Positions 1,574 to 24,222 of a DNA stretch of 64,000 nucleotides are shown here, one piece after another. The stretch is from Gemmatimonas sp. Its GTDB lineage: Bacteria; Gemmatimonadota; Gemmatimonadetes; Gemmatimonadales; Gemmatimonadaceae. Within the stretch, counting starts at the first letter, position 1. Every line of letters starts with the position of its first letter. The stretch is from contig OZ257156.1 of assembly GCA_965279375.1 (NCBI GenBank), positions 4,672,001 to 4,736,000 of the forward strand, in the 5' to 3' direction. The notes under the pieces were generated by a model. It did no database searches. It was not told where the DNA came from and worked only from the letters and a program-made list of their open reading frames with translations. A program made the position numbers and the translations under genes.

Positions 1574-1581
1574 GCGGATTG

Positions 1582-2571: not shown

Positions 2572-2573
2572 GG

Positions 2574-3326: not shown

Positions 3327-3483
3327 CGCGGTCGCTCCGTCAGAAGGGCCAAGAGGTAGGGTAACGACGGAAGCTAGACCGGCGCGGTGGCGTGGGCAAT
3401 GTGACGCCACCGTCGGGTTTGGGCATTGCTTTTCCGGGTGGGCACGCGAGCCGCCGTCCCCACCCGGGCGATACGCTCCGCCC

Positions 3484-4722: not shown

Positions 4723-4881
4723 GGGATTCATGCCCTGCAGGTGGGAGTGCAAATCGAGACGTCGGAAATGTAGCAAGCCGTCCACCAATGTGTTGCACGC
4801 ACGCTTCACGGATTGACAGGGCTCTTTCGAGGCATGGAATTCCTCCCACGAATATTCTTGGCTCCCCATCCGAGGCGTACG

Positions 4882-7704: not shown

Positions 7705-7770
7705 CGGCAACACGGCCTCGCCGCCGCCGCGGCGAGGCCCCCACGCCCCGTCCCGCCTTCCCCACAACCC

Positions 7771-7813
7771 AACACGCCTCCGGTCCTTTCCCGACCGGAG
7801 GCGTGTTCGGTTT
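7771..7813 (+). terminator. Intrinsic terminator-like hairpin after the lipoprotein gene
   Basis: Perfect 15-bp stem AACACGCCTCCGGTC (7771-7785) / GACCGGAGGCGTGTT (7793-7807), 7-nt loop, short T tract. A second GC hairpin lies at ~7714-7739. Confidence 0.7.
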
Positions 7814-7856
7814 AACCCGCTCTTGACCGTCTCTTTGCGCCGTCCTAAGGTGGCGA

Positions 7857-10800
7857 ATGAGACTTCTGGTCCAGCACCAAAGCACGTGGGCGTACCCCAC
7901 ACCGGCCGCACTTGGGCCCCATCTGATCCGCCTCGCGCCCGCCAGCCATACGAAGGCTCGGATCGAGACCTTCGGCCTCAACGTCGGCCCCACCGCCGGC
8001 GATATCCGCTGGCAACAGGACCCCTACGGCAACAAGGTCGCGCGCCTCACCTACCCCGCCGGCACTCGCGTGCCCGCGCTTCAGGTGGGCATCGAGTTCA
8101 CCTGCGAGGTCAAGCCGGTCAACCCGTTCGATTTCTTCGTCGATGACCGCTGCAAGGAAGCGCCCTTTGCCTATCCCGCCGAGCTGCAGCCCGACCTCGC
8201 CCCGTTTCTCGACCTGCGCGACGCGTCGTTAACCGGTGGCCCGAAGCTCGACGCGTTTCTAGACGCGCTCCCCCGCGATGGCGACACCGTCCAACTCGTC
8301 GTCGCCCTCAACGAGGCGGTCAATCGCGTCACGCGCTACGTCATTCGCGAAGAGGCGGGCATCTGGACGCCGGAAGAAACGCTCACGAACGGCCGCGGCA
8401 GCTGTCGCGACTCCGCCGTGCTGCTCATCGCCGCGCTCCGCTCCCGCGGACTCGCCGCGCGCTTCGTCAGCGGATACCTGATTCAGCTCACCGACGAAGG
8501 CATGATCCCCGGCGCGCCCAAGGGCGTCTCGCGGGACGTCGTCGATCTGCACGCGTGGGCCGAGGTCTTCATTCCAGGCGGCGGCTGGATCGGTCTCGAT
8601 GCCACAAGCGGACTGCTGTGCGGCGAAGGACACATCCCCCTCGCCTGCACCGCCACGCCGCCGCTCGCCGCGCCGGTCGAAGGCACGAGCGACACGCAGG
8701 CCGAGGGCGTCAGCTTCACAATGCGCATCGAGCGGCTGGGCCACGAGCCGCAGCCCACGCGCCCGTACGAAGAGTCGGTGTGGGAAGCGCTGCTGGCCGC
8801 CGGCGATCGTGCCGACGAGGCACTGCGCGCTGCCGGCCTCACGATGACGATGGGCGGCGAGCCGACGTTCAACGGGCGCGACAACCCGTCGTATCCCGAA
8901 TGGAACGGTGATGCACTGGGCCCCGACAAAACCAAGGTCGGTCGCCGCTTTGCCGCCGGTCTCGTCGAGCGACTCGCGCCCGGCGGCATCATCATGGAGC
9001 GCGTTGGCAAGCAGTATCCCGGCGAGAGTCTGCCGCGCTGGGCGCTCGACATCATCGGCCGACGCGACAGGCGCCCCATCTGGCGTGGCCCCACGCTGGT
9101 CGACCCCACCGGCGCCACCACGGCCGACGCCACGCGCTTCGCTGCCACACTCGCCGGCCGCCTCGGACTCGGCCGCTTCGTCATTGCCGCCTACGAAGAC
9201 CCGTGGCGCGCCCTGCAGGACGAAGCCAACCTCCCCATCGACGTCGATCCGCGTACCGCCAAGCTCACCGACTCGGAAGAGCGCCGACGTCTCGCACGCC
9301 TGCTCGATCGTGGCATCAACACCGAAGTGGGATACGTGCTGCCGCTCACGCGCTTTGAAGGCGCATGGGTGAGTGATCGATGGACGTTCCGTCGCGGCAA
9401 TTGCTTTCTGCTGCCCGGCGACGGACCGATGGGGCTGCGCTTGCCGCTGCAGTCGCTCACGGCCGCATGGGTGGCCGCGCCAACAGAAGCCTCGCTCGAC
9501 GCGCCCGATCCGCGACGCGAGGCCGCACTCAAGGCCGAAGACGAACGACAAGCGCGTTTACGCGCGGCGTTGCAGCGCGTGATTCAAACGCAGCGCGAAG
9601 GTAGCCGACAGACGCAGAGTTCCGTTGGCATCATTGGTGGCACAGTGGTGCAAGGAGCCACGGTGCGCACCGCGCTCTGTGTGGAGGCACGCGATGGTGC
9701 ACTGCGCGTCTTCTTTCCGCCGCTCGAAACGCTCGACGATTTCCTCGCGCTGCTGTCCGCGGTCGATCGCACGTCGCAAGACCTTGGCTTGCCAGTCGCG
9801 CTCGAAGGCTATCCGCCGCCGTCGTCCAACGAGCTGCAGAAGTTCTGCATCACCCCCGACCCCGGAGTGCTGGAGGTCGCACTCACACCCGTCACGAGCG
9901 TGCGTGAACATGCGGCCCTCGTGGACACGGTGTTTGACGTCGCGTTGCATGCGGGGCTACACAGCGAGAAGTATCTGCTCGACGGTCGCATGGCCGGCAG
10001 CGGCGGTGGCAATCACATCACCTTCGGTGGACCGGAGCCGCTCCAAAGCCCCTTCCTGTCGCGCCCTGATCTGCTGGCGAGTCTGCTCACCTTCCTGCAG
10101 CACCATCCGTCGCTGTCGTACATGTTCTCGGGGCTGTTCGTCGGCCCCACGTCCGAAGCGCCGCGCGTGGATGAAGCGCGACACGACGCGCTGTACGAAC
10201 TCGAGATCGCGCTCGACCGCGCGCACGATCGCTCGCAGCCCACGCCCACGTGGCTGACGGACCTCCTGTTCCGTCATCTCCTCGTCGACGTGGCCGGCAA
10301 CACGCACCGCGCCGAGCTCTCGATCGACAAACTCTTCGATCCCAACACGCCGTACGGCCGACAGGGTATCATCGAGATGCGCGCCTTCGAAATGCCGCCG
10401 CACCCGCGAATGATCACGGCGCAGGCGCTGCTGCTGCGCTCACTGCTCGCGAGCTTCGCGCACGAGCCGTATCAGGCGCCGCTGGTGCGCTGGGGACAGA
10501 CGCTGCATGACAAGTTTTTGCTCCCCACGTTTCTCTGGCGCGATTTCGAAGACGTGCTGGGGTTTCTCGACGCGCGCGGCTTCCCGCTTCCTGTCGATGG
10601 CTACAAGCCGTTCGTCGATCTGCGCTGTCCGCTGGTGGGCACACTCGACGCGGGCGACATCGTCCTCGAAGTGCGCAACGCCATCGAGCCTTGGCCGGTG
10701 CTTGGCGAAGAAGCGACACCAACCGGCACGTCGCGCTACGTCGATTCGTCGATGGAGCGCATCGAAGTACGGCTGCGTGGTGCGGTCGCCGAGCGCCACG

Positions 10801-11210
10801 TCGTGCTGGTGAATGGTCACCGCCTGCCGCTACGGCCATCTGGCGTTGCATCGGAGCTCGTCGGCGGTGTGCGATTCCGCGCGTGGGCACCGCCGCACAG
10901 CCTCCATGCGCATCTTGGCATTCATCACCCGATCGCGCTCGACATCGTCGACACGTGGGGGCGTCGCTCGCTCGGCGCGTGCGCCTATCACGTCTGGCAT
11001 CCGGAAGGGCGCAGTTTCGATTCGCCGCCGCTCACCCGATTCGAAGCATCCGCGCGTCGCGCACAACGCTTCACGCGAGAATCGCCGTTGCGGGCGCCGG
11101 TGCAGCCTCGCGAAGCCGCCGCGCACGGCGACGCTCCCTACACGCTCGACCTGCGCCGCTACCCTATCGATCGTCCGCCACCACGCGGTGAGGAGACTGC
11201 CGACTCGTGA
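7857..11210 (+). CDS. Transglutaminase-like protein fused to a DUF2126-type putative amidoligase domain
   Basis: N-terminal WQQDPYGN; triad motifs GSCRDSA, DLHAWAEV, LDATSG; C-terminal MGGEPTF, YPGESLPRW, ITPDPGVLEV, GGGNHITFGG, GNTHRAELSIDKL, EMRAFEMPPHPRM. Confidence 0.9.
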   Translation: MRLLVQHQSTWAYPTPAALGPHLIRLAPASHTKARIETFGLNVGPTAGDIRWQQDPYGNKVARLTYPAGTRVPALQVGIEFTCEVKPVNPFDFFVDDRCKEAPFAYPAELQPDLAPFLDLRDASLTGGPKLDAFLDALPRDGDTVQLVVALNEAVNRVTRYVIREEAGIWTPEETLTNGRGSCRDSAVLLIAALRSRGLAARFVSGYLIQLTDEGMIPGAPKGVSRDVVDLHAWAEVFIPGGGWIGLDATSGLLCGEGHIPLACTATPPLAAPVEGTSDTQAEGVSFTMRIERLGHEPQPTRPYEESVWEALLAAGDRADEALRAAGLTMTMGGEPTFNGRDNPSYPEWNGDALGPDKTKVGRRFAAGLVERLAPGGIIMERVGKQYPGESLPRWALDIIGRRDRRPIWRGPTLVDPTGATTADATRFAATLAGRLGLGRFVIAAYEDPWRALQDEANLPIDVDPRTAKLTDSEERRRLARLLDRGINTEVGYVLPLTRFEGAWVSDRWTFRRGNCFLLPGDGPMGLRLPLQSLTAAWVAAPTEASLDAPDPRREAALKAEDERQARLRAALQRVIQTQREGSRQTQSSVGIIGGTVVQGATVRTALCVEARDGALRVFFPPLETLDDFLALLSAVDRTSQDLGLPVALEGYPPPSSNELQKFCITPDPGVLEVALTPVTSVREHAALVDTVFDVALHAGLHSEKYLLDGRMAGSGGGNHITFGGPEPLQSPFLSRPDLLASLLTFLQHHPSLSYMFSGLFVGPTSEAPRVDEARHDALYELEIALDRAHDRSQPTPTWLTDLLFRHLLVDVAGNTHRAELSIDKLFDPNTPYGRQGIIEMRAFEMPPHPRMITAQALLLRSLLASFAHEPYQAPLVRWGQTLHDKFLLPTFLWRDFEDVLGFLDARGFPLPVDGYKPFVDLRCPLVGTLDAGDIVLEVRNAIEPWPVLGEEATPTGTSRYVDSSMERIEVRLRGAVAERHVVLVNGHRLPLRPSGVASELVGGVRFRAWAPPHSLHAHLGIHHPIALDIVDTWGRRSLGACAYHVWHPEGRSFDSPPLTRFEASARRAQRFTRESPLRAPVQPREAAAHGDAPYTLDLRRYPIDRPPPRGEETADS

Positions 11211-12679
11211 CAAACAGCCTGCCCTCCAGTCTCTTCGAACGCTATCAGTCACCGCCGGGCACGTATGACGAACTCTTCGACGCCACCGGTGCCGCGCGCG
11301 ACGCGTTTCACCGTGTGCTGGCCGCCCTCGGCGCGTCATCGCCCGAAGACTTCGCCAAAAGTCAGGCGCTCGCCGAAGTGGCAATGCTCAAGCAAGGCGT
11401 CACCTTTTCGGTGTACGCTGACAATCGTGGCACCGAAAAGGTCTTTCCGTTCGATCTGGTACCACGCATCGTCGCCGCGCCCGACTGGCAGCCGCTCGAG
11501 CGTGGGCTCGCGCAACGCGTGCAAGCGCTCGGACATTTTCTGGACGATGTCTACGGCGAGCAGCGCATCCTCCGCGACGGCATCATCCCGCGCGAGCTGG
11601 TGCTGGGCGCACAGCAGTACCTGCCCGTCATTCACGGCGTGAGGCCGGCCGGCGGCGTGCGTGTCCACATCGCGGGCATCGATCTCATTCGCGATGCGGA
11701 CGGCTGCTTCCGCGTGCTCGAGGACAACGTGCGCACCCCCTCCGGCGTGTCGTACGTGCTGGAGAATCGCCTCGTCACCAAGCGCATCTTCCCGCGCCTG
11801 TTCGAGCAGGCGTCAGTGCATCGCGTCGATCACTACCCTACGCGACTCGGCGAAACGCTGCGCAGCGTCTCCCCGCGCGACCCGGATGAATCCACCGTGG
11901 TGGTGCTCACCCCCGGGTCATACAACTCGGCGTACTTCGAGCACAGCTTTCTCGCGCGGCAGATGGGCATCGAGCTGGTGGAGGCGCCGGACCTGTTCGT
12001 CGAGCACGACAAGGTGTTCATGCGAACCACGCGCGGACCGAGGCGCGTGGACGTGATCTATCGCCGCACCGACGAACTCTTTCTCGACCCCGAAGTCTTC
12101 CGCCCCGACTCCGTGCTGGGTGTGCGCGGCCTCATGCGCGCGTGGGCCGCCGGCAACGTGACGTTAGCCAACGCGCCGGGCAATGGCGTCGCCGACGACA
12201 AGGCGATCTATCCGTTTGTACCGGACATGATTCGCTACTACCTCTCGGAAGCGCCCATCCTCGAACAGGTGCCCACGTACGTGTGCCTGCGCGACGAGGA
12301 CCGTCGCTACGTGGTGGACCATCTCAGCGAGCTGGTGGTGAAGGCCGTGGATGAATCGGGCGGCTACGGCATGCTCATGGGACCACAGGCGTCCAAGAAG
12401 GAGATCGACGAGTTCCGCACGCGGATCGAGGCCGACCCGCGCAAGTACATCGCGCAGCCGCGCATCGAACTCTCTACCTGCCCCACCTGGGACCCGAGCA
12501 AGCGCTGCATGGAAGCCCGTCGCGTGGATCTGCGTCCATATATCCTCTCCAATGCGCAGGGCCCGTGGGTGCTGCCCGGTGGCCTCACGCGCGTCGCACT
12601 CGTGCCCGGATCCTACGTCGTCAATTCGTCGCAAGGCGGCGGATCGAAAGACACGTGGGTGCAGAAGGGGGTCGCATGA
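11207..12679 (+). CDS. Circularly permuted type 2 ATP-grasp protein (DUF404/DUF407)
   Basis: FPFDLVPR, VLEDNVRTPSGVSY, NSAYFEHSFLA, NAPGNGVADDKAIY, GGLTRVAL, VVNSSQGGGSKDTWV; GTGA overlap with the upstream gene. Confidence 0.95.
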   Translation: MTNSLPSSLFERYQSPPGTYDELFDATGAARDAFHRVLAALGASSPEDFAKSQALAEVAMLKQGVTFSVYADNRGTEKVFPFDLVPRIVAAPDWQPLERGLAQRVQALGHFLDDVYGEQRILRDGIIPRELVLGAQQYLPVIHGVRPAGGVRVHIAGIDLIRDADGCFRVLEDNVRTPSGVSYVLENRLVTKRIFPRLFEQASVHRVDHYPTRLGETLRSVSPRDPDESTVVVLTPGSYNSAYFEHSFLARQMGIELVEAPDLFVEHDKVFMRTTRGPRRVDVIYRRTDELFLDPEVFRPDSVLGVRGLMRAWAAGNVTLANAPGNGVADDKAIYPFVPDMIRYYLSEAPILEQVPTYVCLRDEDRRYVVDHLSELVVKAVDESGGYGMLMGPQASKKEIDEFRTRIEADPRKYIAQPRIELSTCPTWDPSKRCMEARRVDLRPYILSNAQGPWVLPGGLTRVALVPGSYVVNSSQGGGSKDTWVQKGVA

Positions 12680-13662
12680 TCTCACGCGTTGCCGACTGCT
12701 GCTTCTGGTTAGGGCGCTATGTCGAGCGCATCGAGGCGACGGCCCGCCTGCTCTCCGTTACGCGCACCTTGGCGATGGACGCCGAGCTGGAGCCGCGGCA
12801 GTGCTGGCTGCCGGTCGTCATCGTGATCGGTGAAGAGCCGCAGTTCATCGACCGCACGACGGAGTCGCCCATCGCGCAGACCTCGGGCGAACAGGTCGAA
12901 CGGTACATGACGTGGGATGAGCAGAACCTCTCCTCCATCAAGGCCTCCATCGCCGCCGCGCGAGAGAACGCACGACAGATCCGCGAGGTGATCAGCCTCG
13001 AAGTGTGGGAGGCGATCAACGAGTTGTATCTCTGGATGGGTGGCGCCGATGCACGCGCTGAGTATGCGAGCGATCGGTACATGTTCTATCGGTTCATCCG
13101 GCAGCGCTGTCAGTTGGTTGCAGGGCTGCTGCGCTCCACCATGCTGCACGAGCTCCCGCTCAACTTCATCTGGCTGGGCATGCTGCTCGAGCGTGCGGGG
13201 CAGACGGCACGCGTGGTTGACGTGCAGCACCACGCGCTGGTGATGCGCGAGCGTGAAAATCAGGTGATCGAGACCGCGCTCTGGCTCTCGCTGCTGCGAG
13301 CCTGCTCGGCGTTCGAGCCGTTCACCAAGCGCAACCGCGGGCGCATCACCGGCGACGCCGTGGCGCACTTCCTGATCTTCGAGCCGCTCTTCCCCAAGTC
13401 CATCGCCTACAGTGTGCATGAGGCATGGCGGCGGTTCATGGTCATTCGCCCGCCGGAAGAGCCGGATCTACCCGGCGCTCGGAGCGCGGAGCGGCTGCGC
13501 GCGCTGGATCGATGGATCGCCGACAGGGCCGCGGTCGGGGCCGCTGGTGACGTTCACGGCATGCTCACACATGTTGTGGATGAAATTGCCGATATTTGTA
13601 CGGACATCGGTGCCGAACTTTTTGGCCACGCGTCCGCCCCCGCCCTGGAGTCTGCGCAGTAA
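12676..13662 (+). CDS. Alpha-E domain protein (DUF403)
   Basis: MISRVADCCFWLGRYVERIE, ARENARQIREVIS.EVWE, LGMLLERA, FPKSI; ATGA overlap. Confidence 0.93.
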   Translation: MISRVADCCFWLGRYVERIEATARLLSVTRTLAMDAELEPRQCWLPVVIVIGEEPQFIDRTTESPIAQTSGEQVERYMTWDEQNLSSIKASIAAARENARQIREVISLEVWEAINELYLWMGGADARAEYASDRYMFYRFIRQRCQLVAGLLRSTMLHELPLNFIWLGMLLERAGQTARVVDVQHHALVMRERENQVIETALWLSLLRACSAFEPFTKRNRGRITGDAVAHFLIFEPLFPKSIAYSVHEAWRRFMVIRPPEEPDLPGARSAERLRALDRWIADRAAVGAAGDVHGMLTHVVDEIADICTDIGAELFGHASAPALESAQ

Positions 13663-15491
13663 TGCCCAAGTACCTCGCGATGTCGTTCGAAGGCGACTTC
13701 GCACCCTCGTTCGACCTGCATTGCCTGCGCCCCGGACGTCGCCCCCCTGATGGCTGGGGGCTGGGCTACTACCCGGGCGGTGGACAGGCGGCGGCTGTTC
13801 TCAAGGAACCGTCTCCACCGTTCGGCAGCATTCGCAGTGAGCTGGTGAAGGCGTGGGAGCATCTGGAGTCGTCGCTGTTCGTGCTGCACATCCGCGTGGC
13901 CACGTGGGGCCCAGTCAGCGACGCCAACACACAGCCGTTCGCGCGTAGCTGGGGCGGGCGCGATTGGTTGATGGCGCATGCCGGCAGCCTGACACAGCGG
14001 TTGCCACAGCGTGCAGGGGCGCGCTTTGAAGCGGTCGGCTCCACCGACACGGAACAGCTCTTCTGCGAACTGCTCGACCGCGTTGCAGACATGGGCTGGC
14101 GCTCGCTCGGCGATGCCGACCCCGAGTTGTTGCGTCGCTGGTTCGCGGAAGTGAACGACAAGGGTGTGCTCACCAGTTGCCTCACCGATGGTCGTGATCT
14201 GGCGGTCTACGCCGACGAGCATGGCGACGGCGACGTGTACGTGTGCGAGATCGTGCCGCCGTTCAACGAGATGTCGTTTGGCGATGAGGATCTCACCGTC
14301 GATCTCGGTCAGCGCGGCGTGAAGAGCCGGAAGGGCGTTGTGGTGTCGAGCGATCCGTTGCAGGTGACTGGCATCAAGGACGCCAAGTGGCGCCGGTTGC
14401 CGCCCGGCCATCTGCTGATCATTCGGCAGGGGGCGATTCGCGTGGAAGTCGCACCCCCCGCGAGTGAGACCGCCGACTCCGCGAGCCCGCTGATCACCGC
14501 AGACGTCATGGGACCCAACGGCGCAGAAGCCGCGGTCATCCGCCGCGCGACGACCGTGCATCCCGTCGCCGCGCCGGTGCGCCAGCTCGAGATCGTGCAT
14601 CACACCGTGTATCGCTACAAACGTCCCGTCGAACGCAGCACGCACAACTTGCGTCTCGTGCCGATGCAGGATCATCTGCAGCGCTTGCTGTCGCACACGC
14701 TGACGGTCACGGTCGACGGACAGCCTCTTTCCACGCCGCAAAGCGCAGAGTACGAAGACGTCTTCGGCAATCGCGCGCAACGCCTGCTCATCGAGCGTCC
14801 GTATCACGAGCTCTCGATCGAGTCACGCGCCACCGTCGAGCTGTACGACACCGATCCGCTCTCGTTCCGTCCGTTGCGCGTGCGCTCCTCCATCCCGCTG
14901 GTGTGGATGCCGTGGCAGCGACAGATCCTGCAGCCGTTTCTGTTGCCTCCGGAGCTGCCGGAGAGTGAGCTCAACGAGCTGCTCGACTACGCGATGAGTT
15001 TCGTGAAGCGCAACGATTCCGATCTGCTGGAAACGTTGCTCGACATCAACAACTCGATCTTCCGCGAGTACGCGTATCGGCAAGGCACCACGACGGTCTC
15101 TACGACGCCGTTCGAGGTGTACGTCAACCGCTTTGGCGTCTGCCAGGATTTCACCAACCTCTTCATCTGCCTCGCGCGCCTGCTCGGCGTTCCGGCGCGC
15201 TACGTGTGCGGCTACGTGTACACGGGCCCCAGGCACGTCAACCAACGCCAGTCGGAAGCGTCGCACGCGTGGGTGCAGGTGTACTTGCCCGAAGTGGGCT
15301 GGAAGGGATTCGATCCGACCAACGGCATCCTCACACAGACGGATCACGTGCGCACCGCCGTGGGTCGCAATTACGTGGACGCCACGCCAACGTCAGGAAC
15401 GATCTACGTGGGCGGTGGCTCGGAGTCGCTGTCGGTGGACGTGCGCGTGTCGCCGACGGAAGCGGTGGCAGAGACGGTTGCGGTGGGTTGA
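13662..15491 (+). CDS. Class II glutamine amidotransferase-like (Ntn) domain fused to transglutaminase
   Basis: TAATG-coupled start MPKYLAMSFEGD; DGWGLGYY, HIRVATWG..NTQPF, GSTDTE; C-terminal EDVFGN, GVCQDFT, ASHAWVQV, FDPTN. Confidence 0.88.
   Translation: MPKYLAMSFEGDFAPSFDLHCLRPGRRPPDGWGLGYYPGGGQAAAVLKEPSPPFGSIRSELVKAWEHLESSLFVLHIRVATWGPVSDANTQPFARSWGGRDWLMAHAGSLTQRLPQRAGARFEAVGSTDTEQLFCELLDRVADMGWRSLGDADPELLRRWFAEVNDKGVLTSCLTDGRDLAVYADEHGDGDVYVCEIVPPFNEMSFGDEDLTVDLGQRGVKSRKGVVVSSDPLQVTGIKDAKWRRLPPGHLLIIRQGAIRVEVAPPASETADSASPLITADVMGPNGAEAAVIRRATTVHPVAAPVRQLEIVHHTVYRYKRPVERSTHNLRLVPMQDHLQRLLSHTLTVTVDGQPLSTPQSAEYEDVFGNRAQRLLIERPYHELSIESRATVELYDTDPLSFRPLRVRSSIPLVWMPWQRQILQPFLLPPELPESELNELLDYAMSFVKRNDSDLLETLLDINNSIFREYAYRQGTTTVSTTPFEVYVNRFGVCQDFTNLFICLARLLGVPARYVCGYVYTGPRHVNQRQSEASHAWVQVYLPEVGWKGFDPTNGILTQTDHVRTAVGRNYVDATPTSGTIYVGGGSESLSVDVRVSPTEAVAETVAVG
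15360..15491 (+). repeat. Left copy of a 132-bp direct repeat (last 43 codons + stop of the Ntn-transglutaminase gene)
   Basis: Collinear without gaps with 21778-21909; includes 17-bp and 46-bp identical runs separated by one mismatch. Confidence 0.95.
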
Positions 15492-15495
15492 GTGG

Positions 15496-18400
15496 TCAGC
15501 TGTTGGGTGGGTCGGGTAGCGTTGTCAGCGCCGTGAGTGCCTGCAGGCGATCGCTATCGTCCGCAAGTTTGGCCAGCTGTAGTTGCGTAGCGGCGAACGC
15601 GGCATCGCGCTGGACGCGGTAGGCCGCGTATTGCTCCCCGCGACGCGTGAGGGTGAGGATGCCGAGTACGGCTCCTGCCCACGCGTCGCCTGCGTCGCGA
15701 CGCTCGCTCAGATGCGCCGAAACAGAAGGCGAGAGCAGCTCCTCCAAGTGGTCCGTCAAATATTCGGACGAGAAGCCCGCAGTGGACCACTCGTGGACGG
15801 CAACTCGCGCGAGCAACGGCGCGTACGCTTCGACGATGCCATCGCTGCGCGCCTTCGCGAGCAGGCCGCGACGCTGCTGGACGGCTGTTGGATTCGCACC
15901 GGCGTCGAGCAACTCGAGCAGGAGCGTATCGCTGCCCGGCTCCAACAGCTCCGGATGCGCCGCGAGATAGTCGCGTGAGTGCGACCAGCTATCCGCGTTC
16001 CACCACGCCACAGCCAGACGATCGAGCGCCGGATCGATGCGCAGCCACTCCGGCACGTCGCCTGCCGCATGTTGCCAGTGTGCATCGAAGACATCCGGAT
16101 ATCTCGCGCGTTCGCGACGTGCAATCATCCGCAGATATCTCGCGCGCCCGCGTACGAGCTCTGGCTCGCTCAGCGCCGCGTGTAGGCAGCGCACAGTTTC
16201 CCCGAACTGCTCAACAGGGCGCGAGCGCAGTATCTGCAGGTTTTCGACAAGCGACGGGTTGTCCGCCAGGGACAGCAGGACCGCGTTCCAGACCGCGTCG
16301 TCGGCGCCCGAGAGCGGCGCAGCCAGCAGTTCCGCCGCTCGCAACTCTCCCTGAGCGATCGCGCGGAGCCGATTGATGCCCTCTGCCATAACGGACGCGC
16401 CCTCATCTTCCGCACCGGTCTCGTTCAGAGCGCGACCCCGAACGATGTATGCCAACGCCAGCGCCACAGCGCTCGCCGAACGTCCAGGACTTTCCAGCAG
16501 CGCGAGCGCACGCGTCGATAGCGAAAGCGCACTCGCGAAGTCGTCAGCCTTGAGCTGCATCAGGCTCAGATTGAAAAGCGCCGTCCCAACCCACCCGTCG
16601 GATACGCCTCGCAGCGAATCCACGTCCAGCAGAGCGAGTGCTTCTTCCAACGACCGGCGGGCATCCTCAACGCGATCGAGCGCAAGCAACGCTGCGCCAG
16701 CGTTGAGCGCGCACACGCCGCGGGGCAACCCCGTCTGCCCGGACGCTTGGTACGGTGCCAGCACCGCGTGCGCTTCCGCCGCGAACGCCAGCGCCTCCAG
16801 CGGCCGCGCCTGCGTCACGCAGCCGCCGGTGAGATCAGCAAGCAACGACGCCAACTGCAGTGCGGACGCCAGCGTACTGATGTGCGCCTCGCGGAAGGCC
16901 TCAAGCGAACCTTCGCGTGCCTCTGCCGCCTCCTCGCTGCGGCCGAGCTGTTCCAGCATGGCGAACAGTCGACCCCACGACGCCACGGTTCCGCGACGAA
17001 CGAGACGATCGGGGGACGAGCTCATCAACGTGATCGCTTCTCGTTGGCGATCGACCAGTACTTCCGTAGCGCCGCCCGTCGCTATCGCAACCGACGTGTC
17101 GACCACGATGCCCAGAATCGCACGGAGCTGCGCGCTGCGCGCCGACGAACGCAGTCTCTCCTCGAGCGACGCGAGTTCGGCGAGTCCCGTCCTCGCGTCC
17201 GTGCTCAGCAATTGCACTGCACGTTCGAGCTGTACCAGCGCCAACGAGACCTGCGCGTCGGCGTTGCTCTCCGCGTGTGGACTGATCAGGCCAAGCGCTT
17301 CATTCAGCAACGCCAGCGGATCGGTCCCGATCGGAGACGCCCAGCCGAGTATCCCTTCGACGCGCATCGTAAAGGCGAGGAGCCGCAACCCTTCCGCCGT
17401 GGCGACGTCGAGAATCGTACCCGTCGCTTGGCGCGCACGGTGCAGTATCGCCACGCGCTCAGCGGCCAGTGGTCGTGGTCTCGTATCCGCAGGCCGCACG
17501 CCAGTAGCACCGCTCTCATAGAGCGCGCCGACAAGCTCGGCCACCTCGATCTTGGCGCGAATCACCAGAGCATCCACCAGCAGGGCGATGCGATGGTCGC
17601 TCGACTCCGTCTCCGCGTCGAGCAGCGTGATCGCGCGCCGGCTATAGCCGTCGGCGCTCGTCATGTCTCCTAGCGCTTGCGCGGACTGCGCCGCCAGGTA
17701 GAGCGCGCGAGGCAGCTCGAATGCGCGCACCTCCGGTTCGTCGACGAGCGACTCGAGCAGTTCGATTGCCTCTTGAGCAACCCGAACAGATGCGCGCGGA
17801 TTTCCGAGCCGCAGTTGTGAAAGCACCCGCGCGGTCAGCGTCCCCGCCAGCGTTCGTCGTCCAGACGATTGCTCGGTCGCGTTGCGCGCGATGTCGGAGG
17901 CCTCCGTAGCCGCGGCATCGGACTCTTCCGATTCCTCCGCGGCGCCCAACGCGGAGGACAACGCGTACAATGCCATCGCAAGCTCCATCGGCACGCCGAG
18001 CTGGCGCTGGATGTCGACGGCCTCTCGTTGCAATTCCACCGACTCCTTCGGCAATCCGCGAAGCAGTGCGGTGCTGCTGACGACCGCCAGTGCTTGGGCG
18101 AGGCTGGGGAGGAACGCGTCGCGATCGCGCTCCACCAGTCGGCGCAATAGGACGATCCCCTCCGGCCCCGCATCCGCGAGATGTCGCCAGGCGTGACGCC
18201 AGAGGTACGGGTGCGCCTTCGGCGGCTGCCCTTGATCGAGCAGGGACTCATACTGCTCCGCGATGGCCGTCGCGATCGCGCGTGCGGCCTCTGGCAACAG
18301 ACGTCGTCCGAGCGCCGCACCGGTCGTGGGCCGCAGATAGTCCACCAAGCGCTGGTGCGCGATGCGAAACACGCCCTGATCGCCTTCGGATCCGGCCACC

Positions 18401-20277
18401 ACGTGGCGAGCGAGCGCGTCGAGCAACGCGTACACATCGTCGCGCTGATACGTTGTGCCGCTGGGCGAGAGCGCGGTCGCCACCGCCGGCCAGACATCAT
18501 CAGGCGGGAAACCGCTTCCCAGCGCACAGGCAAGCGCGCGCATCAGTTCACGTGCCGCGCTGGGGTGTGCGCGACCGCCGATCATGAGCACGGTCTGTTC
18601 GAGGTCGCGTTCGAGCGCCGCCTCCACGCCGGTGGGCAATCGGTCGCGCCAATCCGCGCGACTGGTATCCACTGGTGTCTCGCGCAGCTGCGAGGTCACC
18701 AGCCGCGCGAACAGGAACGGTCCCGCGCCGAGCGGTGCGTCAGCGGCGGCGGCTTCGATGATCGCGTCGGCAACCAGCGTGGGATCCATTTCGCGTGAGA
18801 CGCTTTCCAGTCGACGCACCACGTATCGGCGCACATCCTGCATCGTCTCTGCGGCATCGTCCGCGAGATTGATCGTCTCCCCGGTGGTGCCAAGCAGCGC
18901 CAATAGTCCCGGTTGCCCCGCGCCACTGGAGACCTCGCGCGTACCCACCAATACCAGCGCCTCGCGCGAAAGGGGCTGCACCACTTCGAGTGCGAGATTG
19001 CGGCACTCCGTGTCGCCCGCTTCGTCGAGCCCGTCAAGCACGAGCATGAGCGGCCGTCCCTCACGCTTGCGGCGGGCGGCAAGTCCCAGAATGTCGTAGA
19101 TGCTCGAATCCGCGTCGAGCTCGAGTTGTTGCGCGAGATTCACGACGGCGGTGCGTGTATCCAGTCCACGACAGTGCAACTGCGCGCTCACTGTTCCTTC
19201 ACCTGGATCAAGCGTGTCGGGGATGTCGTCTTGCGTGAGCAGGCGCGCCCGCTCCCAGGAATCAGACAGACTCGCGATGCGCCCGAGAACAGCGGACTTC
19301 CCCGAGCCCGCGGGCCCGGTCACAACACATGTACCCGGCGCTCTGCGCGCGATCCACGACACGATGCGCGACAATACGCTGGTGCGCCCGGTGAAGAACG
19401 AGATGTCGGCTTCCTGCGGCTGGGCGACCGCGCGCTCGTCAGGATCACCCTCCGGCGCCAGGCCTCGCGTACGCACGCGCGAGGGGCCGCGAAGCACACC
19501 ACGTGACGTGCCGCGCGCCGCCTGGAGCAGATGCTCTACCACACGATGCTGCGCCTGCGGCCGATAGAGGGGATTGCGCAGCATCGGCCACGCATTGCCC
19601 GTCGAGGCCTGTTGCGGTGAATGCCGATCCTCCGACCACTCCTTCAACAACGCGTCGATGACATCGTCGCCGCGCACGCGCGCATCGTACACTCCCCAGC
19701 GCAATCGTAAGCGTTCGTCCTTGGGACCTTCGGTGAGCAGTCGCTTGAGTTCGCGCGGCAGCGCACCGCTCAGCGATTCCTCATCGGCGCGCGACGCCGA
19801 CACCACGCCGAACCACGCGGAGCCCGGATCCTTACGTCCGGCGATCACCGCGTCGGCCATGGCGAGGGCCGGCGCCACCCCGCCGCCGGAGAAACAGGTG
19901 TCCACGACCACGAGCACTTGCGACGCGCCGGTGCGCGCGGCCCATGCACCGAGTTGCGCAGCACTCGCCACTTCGTCGTCGCGCACGTCGTCGGCGCGAC
20001 TCATGAGCAGGACGTCGCCGTCCGGCCCCGGCGCTCCGTGTCCGATCCAGACCACCACCAGCACGCCGCCCTGCAGCGATTGCCTGCCGAGCGCCCCTGT
20101 GACCTTCCCCAGCAAATCACCCTGCGTCAGGTCGGCAAGCAGCACGCCGTCGAAACCATGCTCGGTCTTCAGGTGTGTGACCAACTCCGACGTATCAGGA
20201 ACTGCGCGCTGGAGCGGCGCGAGCTTCGCGTATGCCCCGTTTGCGATCGCGACAACCCGGTGCGCCTGCTCGCTCAC
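15496..20277 (-). CDS. Caspase-like peptidase + STAND-type P-loop NTPase + TPR-like helical repeats (~1593 aa)
   Basis: GTG 20277 overlaps the lipase stop (GTGA). Caspase motifs VVVWIGHG and VVVDTCFSG; Walker A GPAGSGKS; Walker B LMLVLDGLDEA; long Ala/Leu-rich helical repeat region. Confidence 0.85.
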   Translation of the reverse strand: MSEQAHRVVAIANGAYAKLAPLQRAVPDTSELVTHLKTEHGFDGVLLADLTQGDLLGKVTGALGRQSLQGGVLVVVWIGHGAPGPDGDVLLMSRADDVRDDEVASAAQLGAWAARTGASQVLVVVDTCFSGGGVAPALAMADAVIAGRKDPGSAWFGVVSASRADEESLSGALPRELKRLLTEGPKDERLRLRWGVYDARVRGDDVIDALLKEWSEDRHSPQQASTGNAWPMLRNPLYRPQAQHRVVEHLLQAARGTSRGVLRGPSRVRTRGLAPEGDPDERAVAQPQEADISFFTGRTSVLSRIVSWIARRAPGTCVVTGPAGSGKSAVLGRIASLSDSWERARLLTQDDIPDTLDPGEGTVSAQLHCRGLDTRTAVVNLAQQLELDADSSIYDILGLAARRKREGRPLMLVLDGLDEAGDTECRNLALEVVQPLSREALVLVGTREVSSGAGQPGLLALLGTTGETINLADDAAETMQDVRRYVVRRLESVSREMDPTLVADAIIEAAAADAPLGAGPFLFARLVTSQLRETPVDTSRADWRDRLPTGVEAALERDLEQTVLMIGGRAHPSAARELMRALACALGSGFPPDDVWPAVATALSPSGTTYQRDDVYALLDALARHVVAGSEGDQGVFRIAHQRLVDYLRPTTGAALGRRLLPEAARAIATAIAEQYESLLDQGQPPKAHPYLWRHAWRHLADAGPEGIVLLRRLVERDRDAFLPSLAQALAVVSSTALLRGLPKESVELQREAVDIQRQLGVPMELAMALYALSSALGAAEESEESDAAATEASDIARNATEQSSGRRTLAGTLTARVLSQLRLGNPRASVRVAQEAIELLESLVDEPEVRAFELPRALYLAAQSAQALGDMTSADGYSRRAITLLDAETESSDHRIALLVDALVIRAKIEVAELVGALYESGATGVRPADTRPRPLAAERVAILHRARQATGTILDVATAEGLRLLAFTMRVEGILGWASPIGTDPLALLNEALGLISPHAESNADAQVSLALVQLERAVQLLSTDARTGLAELASLEERLRSSARSAQLRAILGIVVDTSVAIATGGATEVLVDRQREAITLMSSSPDRLVRRGTVASWGRLFAMLEQLGRSEEAAEAREGSLEAFREAHISTLASALQLASLLADLTGGCVTQARPLEALAFAAEAHAVLAPYQASGQTGLPRGVCALNAGAALLALDRVEDARRSLEEALALLDVDSLRGVSDGWVGTALFNLSLMQLKADDFASALSLSTRALALLESPGRSASAVALALAYIVRGRALNETGAEDEGASVMAEGINRLRAIAQGELRAAELLAAPLSGADDAVWNAVLLSLADNPSLVENLQILRSRPVEQFGETVRCLHAALSEPELVRGRARYLRMIARRERARYPDVFDAHWQHAAGDVPEWLRIDPALDRLAVAWWNADSWSHSRDYLAAHPELLEPGSDTLLLELLDAGANPTAVQQRRGLLAKARSDGIVEAYAPLLARVAVHEWSTAGFSSEYLTDHLEELLSPSVSAHLSERRDAGDAWAGAVLGILTLTRRGEQYAAYRVQRDAAFAATQLQLAKLADDSDRLQALTALTTLPDPPNS

Positions 20278-21662
20278 GCCAACGCCCCGTTCCACACGAG
20301 GAAGGGATGCGTGACCGGTGCTGGACCGCCGGCGATCGCGCCGCTCACACGCGCGTGATAGCCACCGGCCGGCAGTGGTCCGAGCGTTGCCCACCCGTCC
20401 TTGCCAACGACGGTCGCAGGTCCCATCTGCTGCAACCGTTCGTCAAACACCGTGACGTGAAGGCGATCGTCACCTTCGTCATGCACGCGGAGTCGGGGGC
20501 GATCTTCAGGTGACCATAGCTCCGCCATCGAGACGCCGATGGTCGATGGCGCGGTCGACTGCCAGATCACGTCTTCACGCGTGAGCAAGCCGTCGATGAG
20601 ATCGAGCGCGGAACGAGTGCCCTGCAGCTCCCCATGCTGATTGGCAACTTCGAGCACCTCACGATTCCTCCCCTGCACCGGTTGGGAGGCAAGGCGCGGC
20701 ACCGTTCCATCGCCACCCTGACTACTCCCGTCGATCTCCTCCGAAGCGATCAGTCGTCCATGCGACCATGCCGCCGTCGTCAGGGTGGGCTGCCGGATGC
20801 CCACGACCTTGTGGAACGCATACGCGGGCTCCGGCGAGGCATCGAGCGTCGCGTGAAAGGCGAGGGCGTCGTCCTGCATAGCGCGGGAGACGTCGGGGAG
20901 ATCGAGGCCGTGCAGACTTCGACGCGGCACATCAGTACCGAGATCGAGACAGTCGTACGTCGGCAGCAACTGATGCAACGACGGCAGACTGCGAGCGAAC
21001 TCTGTGAGATGGAGATGAAACGGCCCGAGGCTCGGCTCGAGGCCGTTCGACAGCGTATTCAGCGCTTTGAGGGCGCCGCGATGCGGCGTGCCGATGGTGA
21101 TCAGCGTGCGGGTGAAAGCGGCACCTCCTTCCTGCTCGAGAAACCACCGCGCGATCAGTCCGCCCATTGAATGACACACCAGCACGAGGCGCGACTCTTC
21201 CATGCCCGGCTGCTCACGCCAGCGTGCCAGCGCGTCTTCGGCGACGACCTTCAGCAGGCGCGCGTTATAGCGATTCGACAGCCGCCAGTCGTAGGGAAAC
21301 GAAATCAGATTGGGAATGCGATCCGGATCGCGCGGATCGGGCTCGATCATCTGGAAGCGCGTGCTCCGCAAAAACTCGAGTGTCCCATCGTACCCGGTGA
21401 TGGGGCTCCACAGTCCTGGGATCACGTGAAGGCTCGGCAGCAGATGCGTCGCACGAATCCTGTTGCCTGGCGGGGCCTCATCGCCGATGCCGATTGGCAG
21501 TGCGAGCGACTGCAGTGAACCTCCGAGCGTCTTGATCGCGTTGACCAGGCTGCCCGCCTCAAGCGACCAGATCGGCCCTCGCTCCATATGCTCCAGAGCG
21601 CTCCCCATGATGCCGGGGATGACGATGACGACGTCGCGAACGAGATTCGTATCCACAGGCAT
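20274..21662 (-). CDS. LCAT/PGAP1-like alpha/beta-hydrolase (lipase/acyltransferase) with C-terminal extension
   Basis: VIVIPGIMGS, FPYDWRLS, nucleophile elbow VCHSMGG, IGTPHRGA, GDGTVP, NQHGEL; no signal peptide. Confidence 0.88.
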   Translation of the reverse strand: MPVDTNLVRDVVIVIPGIMGSALEHMERGPIWSLEAGSLVNAIKTLGGSLQSLALPIGIGDEAPPGNRIRATHLLPSLHVIPGLWSPITGYDGTLEFLRSTRFQMIEPDPRDPDRIPNLISFPYDWRLSNRYNARLLKVVAEDALARWREQPGMEESRLVLVCHSMGGLIARWFLEQEGGAAFTRTLITIGTPHRGALKALNTLSNGLEPSLGPFHLHLTEFARSLPSLHQLLPTYDCLDLGTDVPRRSLHGLDLPDVSRAMQDDALAFHATLDASPEPAYAFHKVVGIRQPTLTTAAWSHGRLIASEEIDGSSQGGDGTVPRLASQPVQGRNREVLEVANQHGELQGTRSALDLIDGLLTREDVIWQSTAPSTIGVSMAELWSPEDRPRLRVHDEGDDRLHVTVFDERLQQMGPATVVGKDGWATLGPLPAGGYHARVSGAIAGGPAPVTHPFLVWNGALA

Positions 21663-21777
21663 TGGGCGACCGGCGCGGCGCGCGGCGAGGCAACGGACGG
21701 AACGTCAACTGGGCTACCGCGGAAGAAAGTATCTCCCGCAGGCCATCCGCGTGATAGGGCTACCGCGCGCTTCCGAC

Positions 21778-21909
21778 GTGGGGCGCAACGACGTGGACGC
21801 CACGCCAGCGTCAGGAACGATCTACGTGGGCGGTGGCTCGGAGTCGCTGTCGGTCGACGTACGCGTAACCCCGACTGTGCTCGTACCAGAGGCGGCTGGC
21901 GTCAGCTGA
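21778..21909 (+). repeat. Right copy of the 132-bp direct repeat; orphan 3' fragment of the transglutaminase gene
   Basis: Translates VGRNDVDATPASGTIYVGGGSESLSVDVRVTPTVLVPEAAGVS* versus VGRNYVDATPTSGTIYVGGGSESLSVDVRVSPTEAVAETVAVG* in the intact gene. Confidence 0.95.
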
Positions 21910-21930
21910 GTCGACAAGAAACCGTAGCCA

Positions 21931-22536
21931 TCACTCGGCGCGTCGGTATTCCATGTAGCGCGCCGTGTCGTCGGCCACCGCCTTGCCGTACAGCCGCTCG
22001 ACCATCTCCAGGGACATGTCGATCCCCGCCGAGATGCCCGCCGATGTGACGACGCCATCGTGCACGACGCGCGCATCGCGCTGCACGTCGATGGTGGCGT
22101 CCAGCGAGGCGAGCGCATCGAGGGCGCCCCAATGAGTCGTCGCGCGCTTGTGCGCGAGCAGACCAGTCTGCGCCAACAGCAATGCACCCGAACAGACGGA
22201 CGTGACGTGAGTCGCGTTCGCAGCGGTCGCGAGAATCCAGTCCAACGTCGGAGGGTGTTCCAGCAATGGTCGCGTTCCCCAGCCGCCGGGCACCACGAGT
22301 AAGTCGATCGGTGGTGCCGACGCGAAATCGTAGTTCGGCAGCAATTGTAGTCCGCCGGTCGCCGTCACCGGCCCAGCGCGTTCCGCAACCAGAAATACGG
22401 AGAACGGTGCGCTCGCGTCGCTTCGCCGTGAGTCGAGCCCGGGCTCGAGGCGCGTGCGGGAGAACACCTCAAACGGCCCCGCAAAGTCCAGCACCTCGAC
22501 CTGGTCGAAGACCAGGATACCGACGGTTAGCGTCAC
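21931..22536 (-). CDS. DJ-1/PfpI family protein
   Basis: VEVLDFAGPFEVF, LLVVPGG, SVCSGALLLA, ATTHW, TSAGISAGID. Confidence 0.93.
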   Translation of the reverse strand: MTLTVGILVFDQVEVLDFAGPFEVFSRTRLEPGLDSRRSDASAPFSVFLVAERAGPVTATGGLQLLPNYDFASAPPIDLLVVPGGWGTRPLLEHPPTLDWILATAANATHVTSVCSGALLLAQTGLLAHKRATTHWGALDALASLDATIDVQRDARVVHDGVVTSAGISAGIDMSLEMVERLYGKAVADDTARYMEYRRAE

Positions 22537-22662
22537 GACTGCTCCTGATAAGACGGAGATAGGACTCTGCGACTACGGCTCCGCATGAATCTCCGATCAC
22601 GCGCTCGAATAGAGAAGTCGGTCGTCCCCGCGTGTGTGTGGTGGGCGATGACGCCACTGGTC

Positions 22663-22692
22663 CTCAAGAATCCGTGCGCGCAATCCGAGACT
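22663..22692 (+). promoter_or_regulatory. Candidate sigma-28 (FliA)-type promoter of the PAS-MCP gene
   Basis: CTCAAG-N15-TCCGAGACT; the same layout occurs upstream of the second MCP at 44108. Confidence 0.55.
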
Positions 22693-22752
22693 GCAGCTGA
22701 GGTCGACGCCGGCCGTGTAGGCACCTCACGCCATTCGCCGGATCTACCTCGC

Positions 22753-24222
22753 ATGCGCATTCCGTTCTTCGCTCCGTCTGACGAAGTCGCTCGTCTCAAG
22801 GCACAACTCGCGCAGGTCACCGAGCGGTCGGATGTTCTCGACCAGTCATGCGGCGTGGGGTTGTGGGACGCAGTGTTGTACAACGCGGACGCGCTCGATC
22901 CGCGCAGCGTGTGGACCTGGTCGCCCGAGTTCCGTCGCCTCATCGGCTACAGCAGCGAAGCGGACTTCCCCAACGTCTGCCAATCGTGGTCGGACAAGCT
23001 GCATCCCGATGACGCGCCTGCCACATTTGCTGCGTTCGGCGGCCACCTCAAGGAGCCCAACGGCACCGGCCACTACGACGTCACCTATCGTCTCAAGATG
23101 AAGGACGGCGAGTACCGCTGGTTCCGCGCCAGCGGCGGCTGCCGTCATTCTGCAGACGGGCAGACCATCCGCGCCTGCGGGTCGCTCACGTTCATTCATG
23201 AGCAAAAGATGCAGGCGCTCAAGATCGAGCAGGATGCGCACTACGATCAGGAGGTCATCGCCGCTCTTGCCGACGGCCTCAAGGCGCTCTCCGACGGCGA
23301 CCTGCGGCATCGCATCGTGGCGGAGGTGCGCCCCACCGCGCAGCCCCTCAAGGACAGCTTCAACGCAACGGTCGAGCAGCTGCACGAAACGATCTCGCAG
23401 GTCAGCGCTGCCTCCTCGCAGGTGAAGAGCGCCGGTGAAGAGATCGCGGACGCGAGTCAGTCGCTCGCGGACGGCGCGACTCGTCAGGCCGCGAGCCTGC
23501 ACGAAGTCACCAGCAGCCTCGACGAGCTGGCATCGATGGCGAGCACGAACGCCACGTCAGCACGCAAGGCCAGCGAGCTTTCGTCGGTGGCGCGTTCCCA
23601 TGCGAGCGACGGCGAAGCACGGATGGCCAACCTCACGGCGGCGATGGCCGACATCAAGGCCTCCACGCAGGAAACCGCCCGCATCATCAAGACGATCAAC
23701 GAGATCGCGTTTCAGACCAACCTGCTCGCGCTCAACGCGGCCGTCGAAGCGGCGCGCGCTGGCGATGCGGGCCGTGGCTTCGCCGTCGTTGCCGAGGAAG
23801 TGCGCTCACTCGCGCTCCGAGCGGCCGCCGCTGCGAAGAGCACGGAAGCGCTGATCGAGAAGAGCGTGACCGCGACTGAACGCGGCGTGCGACTGAACGA
23901 TGAGGTCCTGAGCAGCCTGCAGGAAATCACCGGCCAGATCGCGCAGGTGGTGACCGTCGTGAGTGAGATTTCCGTCGCCAGCACAGGTCAGGTAGATGGC
24001 GTCTCGCGTATCACGCGTGCGGTGGCGGACGTGAACAACATCACGCAGCAGGTCGCTGCCAGCGCCGAGGAGTCGGCGAGCGCCGCCGCAGAACTCAACG
24101 CGCAGGCCAGCACGCTCAACGATACGGTATTGACGTTCGCGCTCGAGGAGGATGTGTTCGGTGAAGCGACACATGCGCCGGCGCGTCGTCCCGCACGCGC
24201 GATGGCGGGACGAGGGCGCTAG
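22753..24222 (+). CDS. Soluble methyl-accepting chemotaxis protein with N-terminal PAS domain
   Basis: [33 protein letters not shown]; signalling hairpin [30 protein letters not shown]; no transmembrane segment. Confidence 0.93.

Follow-up and report, generated by a model that had tools for sequence, protein, structure and literature searches.

A translationally coupled lipase and caspase-like/STAND/TPR gene pair in Gemmatimonas sp. is a candidate protease-gated cell-death module

The gene pair and its domains

The DNA analyzed here (the window) is a stretch of 64,000 nucleotides (nt) from the Gemmatimonas sp. assembly GCA_965279375.1, contig OZ257156.1, positions 4,672,001–4,736,000, and all coordinates below are those of the window unless a locus is named. 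On its minus strand, two open reading frames (ORFs), encoding a lipase and a caspase-like/STAND/TPR protein (hereafter, the partner), overlap at GTGA in positions 20274–20277. The first-pass annotation had described two coupled genes at this site, and all the motifs that it quoted were located in the translations of both proteins, with catalytic and Walker residues that were invariant in the aligned homologues. The module is genuine, its parts are intact, and it recurs elsewhere; it is a variant of protease-gated effector systems. We propose, with a probability of roughly 55%, that it serves as a two-component protease-gated cell-death system, in which sensing would activate the caspase-like domain, which would cut a linker in the lipase and yield a toxic phospholipase. 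The features of the two genes are as follows.

20274–21662, minus strand: lipase gene, 462 amino acid residues (aa), LPLA2/LCAT-type alpha/beta-hydrolase with C-terminal beta-sandwich, predicted latent effector
20574–21641, minus strand: lipase catalytic domain, residues 8–363; S165 at 21168–21170, D318 at 20709–20711, H343 at 20634–20636
20538–20573, minus strand: flexible linker of the lipase, residues 364–375; candidate cleavage site after Q368 (20559–20561), alternative R362
20289–20537, minus strand: probable C-terminal beta-sandwich of the lipase, residues 376–458, transthyretin/prealbumin-like (CarboxypepD_reg/SpaA-like)
15496–20277, minus strand: caspase-like/STAND/TPR gene, 1593 aa from GTG, translationally coupled to the lipase gene
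19558–20259, minus strand: putative caspase-like (clan CD) domain, residues about 7–240; H80 at 20038–20040, C128 at 19894–19896
19399–19503, minus strand: interdomain segment, in-frame insertion between the caspase and STAND domains
18298–19401, minus strand: STAND NTPase module, residues about 293–660; Walker A at 19294–19317, Walker B at 19021–19044, conserved R447
16378–18090, minus strand: TPR-like helical repeats, residues about 730–1300, most variable part, predicted sensor
15499–16290, minus strand: conserved C-terminal region, residues about 1330–1593, with two Trp-rich repeats

The lipase contains the motifs HSMGG (S165), GDGTVP (D318), and QHG (H343), which are not chance resemblances because the S165/D318/H343 triad was kept in all 120 lipases listed out of 1422 matches. 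Pfam assigned it to LCAT (E 1.4e-12, 48 bits with a cut-off of 21) and also to PGAP1. No signal peptide or membrane helix was apparent in the lipase: its hydrolase fold begins at residue 8, and its hydropathy over stretches of 19 residues does not exceed 1.38, in agreement with its earlier description as a signal-less LCAT/PGAP1-like hydrolase. In a structure model based on an alignment of 58 sequences, with a predicted local distance difference test (pLDDT) score of 90.5, residues 8–363 superposed best on LPLA2 (4x90; VIA-align Z 28.4, root-mean-square deviation 3.5, 320 residues aligned) and second best on Tle4 (4r1d; Z 24.4), and Foldseek ranked LPLA2 and LCAT first (E 9e-15). By the Pfam cut-off, the modeled fold, and the Ser-Asp-His triad, we assign the lipase with confidence to the LPLA2/LCAT type, with a phospholipase-A2-type fold, and it would be expected to act on lipids as a phospholipase A2 or acyltransferase-type enzyme. 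It shares the fold and the triad with LPLA2/LCAT (4x90, 5txf) and Tle4 but is only ~20% identical to them, and differs in having no signal peptide, an additional C-terminal domain, and a coupled protease-sensor gene.

The tail of ~90 aa noted earlier beyond the catalytic His is present, but it is a folded domain behind a low-confidence linker rather than a plain tail. The pLDDT of the model fell below 50 at residues 366–370 in the linker and was mostly above 80 in the all-strand block of residues 376–458, and an unstructured inhibitory tail was therefore ruled out. The domain was found in all 120 listed lipases. Pfam gave no direct assignment for it, and the fold searches with the whole lipase returned no match for it, their lists being filled by the catalytic domain. 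The C-terminal 95 residues retrieved 29 proteins, of which 10 were scanned for families; three of these had no family, one was an unrelated FHA-domain repeat protein, and six were SpaA/CarboxypepD_reg/SdrD_B repeat proteins, which makes a transthyretin-like beta-sandwich the most likely identity of this domain.

The partner carries WIGHG (H80), DTCFSG (C128), GPAGSGKS (residues 321–328), and LDGLDE (residues 414–419). Among its 79 matches, 56 were aligned, and H80, D126, C128, G321, G326, K327, D415, E419, and R447 were invariant in 56/56; the invariance of H80, C128, K327, D415, and E419 shows that the motifs do not occur by chance, and the caspase-type dyad is intact, as had been claimed. 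The EACC1-associated caspase model NF047832 matched the N-terminus with an E-value of 3.3e-9 (36.5 bits with a cut-off of 140), and the neighbors of residues 1–250 in the language-model Atlas were Peptidase_C14 clusters at 0.93–0.94. The orthologue at locus L003 scored above the Pfam C14 cut-off, and orthologues carry PF00656. Folding of the domain from a single sequence gave a poor model (pLDDT 51), and two fold searches with that model yielded nothing significant and no caspase. The profile, language-model, and motif evidence suggests that the N-terminal domain is a caspase-like protease of clan CD.

In the rest of the partner, Pfam placed both AAA_16 and NACHT just under the cut-off and detected TPR_12 (E 2.9e-9), and the family profile matched TPR structures. 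With Walker A, a two-acid Walker B, a downstream Arg, an N-terminal effector, and C-terminal repeats, the protein has the composition of a STAND/NLR-like receptor, and its previous reading as a STAND protein with long helical repeats is supported by the Pfam matches and the invariant Walker residues. The modal conservation of the repeat region was 0.47, compared with 0.65–0.68 elsewhere in the partner, as expected of a sensor. Pfam had no family for the C-terminal region with its two Trp-rich repeats (residues about 1330–1593), which is also found in distant partner homologues such as that at L135. The interdomain segment is 31 aa longer than in the nine closest homologues, contains three Arg-Gly pairs, and has no other copy in the genome.

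Recurrence of the lipase with protease genes

Coupling was counted in the best 80 of 404 metagenome loci, 39 of which reached a lipase-profile score of 115 bits or more. This threshold was chosen after the data had been seen, some of the loci in the count had served as seeds of the protease profiles, several loci are near-duplicates, and the homologues are related, so that the counts overstate independence. A protease domain was found within 4.5 kilobases (kb) in 25 of the 39 family loci, and in 22 of the 24 loci whose sequence continues for 1.5 kb or more downstream, whereas the same profiles found none in 41 more distant LCAT-like loci, two of which had a trypsin gene downstream. The partner domains in the 25 loci were caspase-like, CHAT, and transglutaminase-like Cys-His-Asp domains in 8, 3, and 14 loci, respectively. 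For a held-out set, we took the 20 new loci with the highest scores in one actinomycete family, in which 57 of 251 genomes had matches. Fourteen of the 20 had an adjacent protease, namely 11 caspase-STAND proteins, two CHAT proteins, and one transglutaminase-like VMAP protein.

The coupling was also recovered in the opposite direction. A search with the caspase domain alone found 8 of the 251 genomes, 6 of which had the lipase adjacent; of the other two, one had a small LcHydrolase-like hydrolase (L140) and one had no effector in the region fetched. A contig was apparently shared with a listed lipase for 14 of the 23 best caspase-domain matches. The recurrence of caspase-STAND genes beside lipase homologues, which the first-pass annotation had put forward for testing, is supported, although that annotation had missed that the protease is interchangeable, with CHAT and transglutaminase-like domains in the same place. 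The 18 best longer matches comprised 16 lipase-CHAT fusions, one caspase-STAND-lipase fusion, and one partial relative, and the named fusions come from myxobacteria. The family was also present in 45 plasmid records; when six of these loci were opened, five had an adjacent protease domain and one had a STAND-WD40 gene in which the profile detected no protease domain. In the phylum of the source organism, the lipase family is rare, with 3 of 401 genomes, two of them with a full-length copy. A single-protein scan of genome contigs yielded only one true locus.

The sensor parts of the partners vary among TPR, WD40, HEAT, Ig, and VMAP-M2. The transglutaminase-like domain has conserved T-C-[LIV]-D, H-A, and A-[IV]-[DE] motifs, weak matches to Pfam transglutaminase families (E 0.001–0.1), and a local match to the anti-phage ProA model with E-values down to 4e-18, far under the cut-off of that model. 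In a quick tree of 42 of 44 rows, from which two truncated rows were dropped, the partner types were clustered with several changes. A cysteine-protease-like domain stays constant beside the lipase while its fold and the sensor change, which is the strongest argument for proteolytic control.

Five of the 20 held-out lipases had no partner nearby and lay among housekeeping genes. Together with the Tle4 match of the catalytic domain, they would fit a lipase that is either an ordinary enzyme or an exported toxin of the Tle4 kind and lies beside a sensor gene only incidentally. This is very improbable in view of the translational coupling, the recurrence with three proteases, the fusions, and the linker motif described below, and the islet of two genes holds no secretion or immunity gene. 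An exported Tle-type toxin was rejected, the repeat-bounded islet holding only the two genes.

Another of the 20 held-out loci, L176, has its lipase beside a STAND-TPR gene without a protease domain, yet the lipase keeps Arg-Gly in its linker. This locus and the orphan lipases show that the coupling can be lost. L176, which pairs a tailed lipase with a protease-free STAND-TPR gene, is also what would be expected if activation were not proteolytic and the STAND oligomer recruited the lipase through its beta-sandwich as an allosteric switch, the protease having another target or acting on itself. The two tailless distant lipases near trypsin genes point the same way, since protease neighbors are not unique to the family. 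We regard such a switch as quite unlikely, because CHAT partners and lipase-CHAT fusions occur without STAND in the profiles run, three protease types fill the partner slot, and the caspase dyad is invariant.

The distribution of the family bears on what the module may be for. Its presence in 57 of 251 genomes of one actinomycete family, the myxobacterial origin of the named fusions, and the acyltransferase activity of the closest fold, LPLA2/LCAT, would suit a protease-gated switch for lipid signaling or developmental death, found mainly in multicellular bacteria, which would produce a lyso-lipid or acylated signal or lysis in response to stress or a competitor; the immediate neighbors of the module in the window are likewise not known defense genes. 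This possibility is an unlikely one, considering the patchy, islet-like, and plasmid-borne distribution, the variable repeat region, the defense genes beside several homologues, and the local ProA match of the transglutaminase-like domain. Transposase, AbiE, RES, and SIR2/nSTAND1 genes were among those found in the neighborhoods of the homologues.

Several individual loci have additional features. In L176, the STAND-TPR gene without an N-terminal protease (7842–12101) directly follows the lipase with the C-terminal domain and Arg-Gly linker. Transglutaminase-like N-termini were found in the partners at L023, L024, L029–L035, L037, L038, L043, L045, L051, L110, L111, and L117, where they are encoded downstream of the lipase, and the domain mostly precedes STAND with TPR, HEAT, or Ig repeats. 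M17_N-CHAT, lipase, SIR2-like, and nSTAND1 genes stand in a row in L178 (4440–10925) and possibly form a larger defense operon. In L186 (4027–6555, minus strand), the lipase lies beside a transglutaminase-like/VMAP-M2 protein, probably in a MoxR-vWA ternary system. A Bradyrhizobium plasmid (L113, 1160–17131) carries ImmA/IrrE, C1 peptidase, uracil-DNA glycosylase, metallophosphoesterase, lipase, CHAT, S8 peptidase, an AbiE pair, and a caspase gene in one cluster. In three Streptomyces plasmids (L112, L114, and L115, about 1200–9400), the lipase gene is divergent from a STAND-WD40 partner, and these loci adjoin an XRE regulator and a RES-domain gene.

The linker, the proposed mechanism, and known systems

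The low-pLDDT linker contains one conserved column and is a plausible place for a cut between the catalytic and C-terminal domains, in accordance with the earlier suggestion that an inhibitory segment of the lipase is removed. Among 44 diverse homologues, the residue aligned with Q368 was Arg in 30 and the following one was Gly in 27, while the neighboring linker columns were variable. Arg-Gly occurred in the linker of 20 of the 44, compared with a mean of 4.5 and a maximum of 13 in 2000 random window draws, and in 11 of 12 transglutaminase-partnered lipases. The linker Arg was present in 17/17 fusion-type proteins, 10/15 partnered held-out loci, and 0/5 orphan lipases; the sequences in all these counts are related and are not independent trials. 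By alignment with this column, the position after Q368 would be the most likely cleavage site in the lipase of the window. Another Arg, R362, which closes the last helix, is conserved in the clade of the window (93/100).

The caspase domains of this clade may have changed accordingly in their pocket. Position 170 was Ser in 22 of 24 members of the window clade, compared with Asp in 32 of 32 more distant caspases, and position 24 was Arg in 19 of the 24. By alignment with caspase and metacaspase motifs, we take position 170 to be an S1-pocket position. At locus L004, D170 occurs together with an Arg linker, and an acidic residue stands at position 169 in five of the six actinomycete pairs that have an Arg linker, while L003 breaks the pattern between pocket and linker. 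The comparison is confounded by ancestry and is only suggestive of a switch of the window-clade caspase to Gln/Glu specificity. A complex prediction with the lipase and two caspase domains gave a score of 0.13, the mark being 0.32, and counts neither for nor against a complex.

In the mechanism that we propose, the lipase would be made as a latent cytoplasmic enzyme of the phospholipase A2/acyltransferase type, restrained by its tethered C-terminal beta-sandwich. The TPR repeats of the partner would bind something foreign, a phage protein being the likeliest ligand, and oligomerization of the STAND module would switch on the N-terminal caspase-like domain. A cut by the protease in the exposed linker, with the position after Q368 (Arg in most relatives) as its likeliest site, would then release a catalytic domain of ~40 kDa, which would hydrolyze membrane lipids and kill or arrest the infected cell. 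The domain anatomy, the intact catalytic residues, the recurrent coupling with proteases, and the conserved pair of linker residues were established computationally, while the sensing, oligomerization, cleavage with its site and activating effect, lipid substrate, and anti-phage role are predicted from them. Proteolytic gating is supported by the bidirectional coupling, the three protease types, the fusions, and the linker Arg-Gly, as well as by the effector exchange at L140, the patchy mobile and defense contexts, and the precedent of an inhibitory C-terminal part in BlEst2.

Some observations weigh against this mechanism. Besides the orphan lipases and L176, the linker of the window clade reads W-[QE] instead of Arg-Gly (among the top 100, 75 have Gln and 21 Glu), and Arg-Gly is found in the linker at only 1/8 loci of a second caspase clade, so that the site is not universal. 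The passages of PMC10816834 on the lipase EstA3 describe a C-terminal beta-sandwich that aids long-chain turnover, which is lost upon its deletion. On the question raised earlier of whether the pair is already named, no model of PADLOC (2023 library, which predates most Avs families) gave a meaningful match to the lipase or the partner.

The chief uncertainty of the mechanism is the sign of the role of the tail, inhibitory or needed. The protease might process the lipase in another way than by shedding an inhibitory tail, for example by cutting elsewhere (in the lid, at about residues 36–90) or with the fragments staying associated, the sandwich binding membrane or substrate and being required for activity. 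The conservation of the tail in 120/120 listed lipases and its retention in partnerless ones would be accounted for in this way, as would the window clade without Arg-Gly. The loss of long-chain activity in EstA3 without a similar sandwich (passages of PMC10816834) and the requirement for both outer fragments of LcHydrolase (according to the parts of Evans et al., bioRxiv 10.1101/2025.11.14.688446, that were available) are in line with it. However, the sole conserved position of an otherwise variable stretch sits in the interdomain linker and is absent from the orphans, and we consider this alternative rather unlikely.

Bacterial gasdermin systems use a caspase-like or other protease to remove the inhibitory C-terminal part of a neighboring effector. 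Compared with them, the window has an enzyme instead of a pore as its predicted effector, and the part removed would be a whole folded domain. A hydrolase counterpart exists as well. In the available parts of Kaur et al. (eLife 2020, PMC7159879), caspase-bearing VMAP systems always have an alpha/beta-hydrolase neighbor, and transglutaminase-like peptidases are rare in that slot. In those of Evans et al. (2025), two cuts at Arg-Gly make LcHydrolase toxic, and the caspase-cut hydrolase kills cells, its substrate being left open there. The first-pass annotation, with its caspase cleaving the product of a neighboring gene, overlooked that such a scheme for hydrolase and caspase pairs has been published for a different hydrolase.

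As in the window, the LcHydrolase gene adjoins a gene for a sensor-fused caspase-like protease (LcCaspase). The hydrolases themselves differ. LcHydrolase, as given in the available parts of its source, has 296 aa and loses through two cuts an internal piece that precedes the nucleophile, whereas the lipase of the window has 462 aa and no such insertion; by inspection, the distance from the FPY motif to the nucleophile Ser is about 133 residues in LcHydrolase and 41 in the lipase. The conserved Arg-Gly of the lipase family lies after the catalytic His, unlike the two pre-nucleophile sites of LcHydrolase, and the family differs further from LcHydrolase in its C-terminal beta-sandwich, its single candidate site, and its additional pairing with CHAT and transglutaminase-like proteases. 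LcHydrolase was represented in the profile comparison by the small hydrolase of L140, which was assigned as LcHydrolase-like by reading its motifs against the published supplement sequence. The match of the lipase profile to this hydrolase was confined to 36 columns, located at the nucleophile elbow (probability 39%), and the profile did not detect it at E 1e-3. Membership in the LcHydrolase family was rejected on size, the 36-column match, and the lack of the internal segment. In L140 itself (9298–10257, minus strand), the small hydrolase lies upstream of a caspase-STAND-WD40 gene related to that of the window, an exchange of effectors. The protease-gated hydrolase logic is thus already known, and the effector differs in size, subfamily, domain content, and, by comparison of the sequences, predicted site.

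Avs2-MBL, Avs4-Pepco, and Avs12-EACC1, as described in the available parts of Evans et al., resemble the window pair in combining a protease-STAND-repeat protein with an upstream effector gene, but the module contains no EACC1, MBL, or Pepco gene and has no match among the Avs models of the 2023 PADLOC library. Although the caspase domain of the window is nearest to the EACC1-associated type (NF047832), a two-gene EACC1 system was rejected, because the upstream gene encodes a lipase and the score of 36.5 bits lies below the cut-off of 140. BlEst2 (PDB 6wpx) has C-terminal domains that are called inhibitory in the propeptide form in the deposition title (passages of PMC10816834). Its propeptide structure matched the lipase in the catalytic core only (Z 18.5), and, unlike for the lipase, no sensor-protease partner is reported in those passages.

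The literature search turned up no description of an LCAT-type lipase partnered by a caspase or STAND protein; Figure 4A and the file media-1.pdf of Evans et al. and survey tables, which may include it, lie outside that search. The available parts of PMC13581612, PMC8195603, bioRxiv 2020.01.06.895854, and PMC13700489 do not describe the lipase family, and two supplements of PMC7159879 searched for the lipase system gave no match.

For the lipase family as a whole, we tentatively suggest an undescribed kind of LPLA2/LCAT-like phospholipase zymogen acting as a widespread bacterial death effector, in which three proteases would cut one linker to shed the transthyretin-like domain. In the clade of the window, the site would have changed from Arg to Gln/Glu along with the caspase pocket (S170 in place of Asp, R24), giving a bacterial caspase of non-basic specificity. 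The confident phospholipase-A2-type fold and the single predicted cut site make the chain from sensing to lipid damage directly testable. Although the family is common in some actinomycetes (57/251 genomes), neither PADLOC nor NCBIfam has a model that matches it. If our proposal is true, the lipase would be the fifth major protease-gated effector, a substrate would be at hand for the uncharacterized transglutaminase-like protease domain on STAND receptors, and the window clade would be a natural case of a change in protease-substrate specificity. Caspase-activated phospholipase A2 occurs in animal apoptosis, and the pathway would parallel it.

The repeat-bounded islet and its surroundings

The following two copies of a direct repeat bracket exactly the lipase and partner genes and nothing else.

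15355–15498, plus strand: left direct-repeat copy, 3′ end of an intact GATase_4-transglutaminase gene
21773–21916, plus strand: right direct-repeat copy, in which the 3′ end of the GATase_4-transglutaminase gene is present as a duplicated remnant

The 144-nt copies are 81% identical, with a 103-nt core at 90%, and the inserted islet presumed earlier is supported by them. The arrangement fits an insertion by recombination at the 3′ end of the transglutaminase gene. The GC content at third codon positions and the codon usage of the two genes were not atypical (28th–36th percentile), and no compositional anomaly was found. Searches at the locus found no tRNA and no promoter-like or terminator-like sites. 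The repeat had no match in relatives and no empty insertion site was seen, the transglutaminase gene being strongly matched in just one of 24 genomes of the genus, where the match lies at the end of a contig. One DNA sequencing run, possibly from the source sample, covered the module evenly with no indel; its coverage breaks at the repeats and is uninformative on excision.

To the left, a four-gene cluster on the plus strand (7857–15491) encodes a transglutaminase-DUF2126 amidoligase, a circularly permuted ATP-grasp protein, an Alpha-E protein, and the GATase_4-transglutaminase fusion. This cluster is possibly itself acquired, given the one strong match of its last gene in the 24 genomes. The right repeat copy is flanked by a DJ-1/PfpI gene (21931–22536, minus strand) and an ORF (22585–24222, plus strand) that reads by eye like a PAS-domain chemoreceptor.

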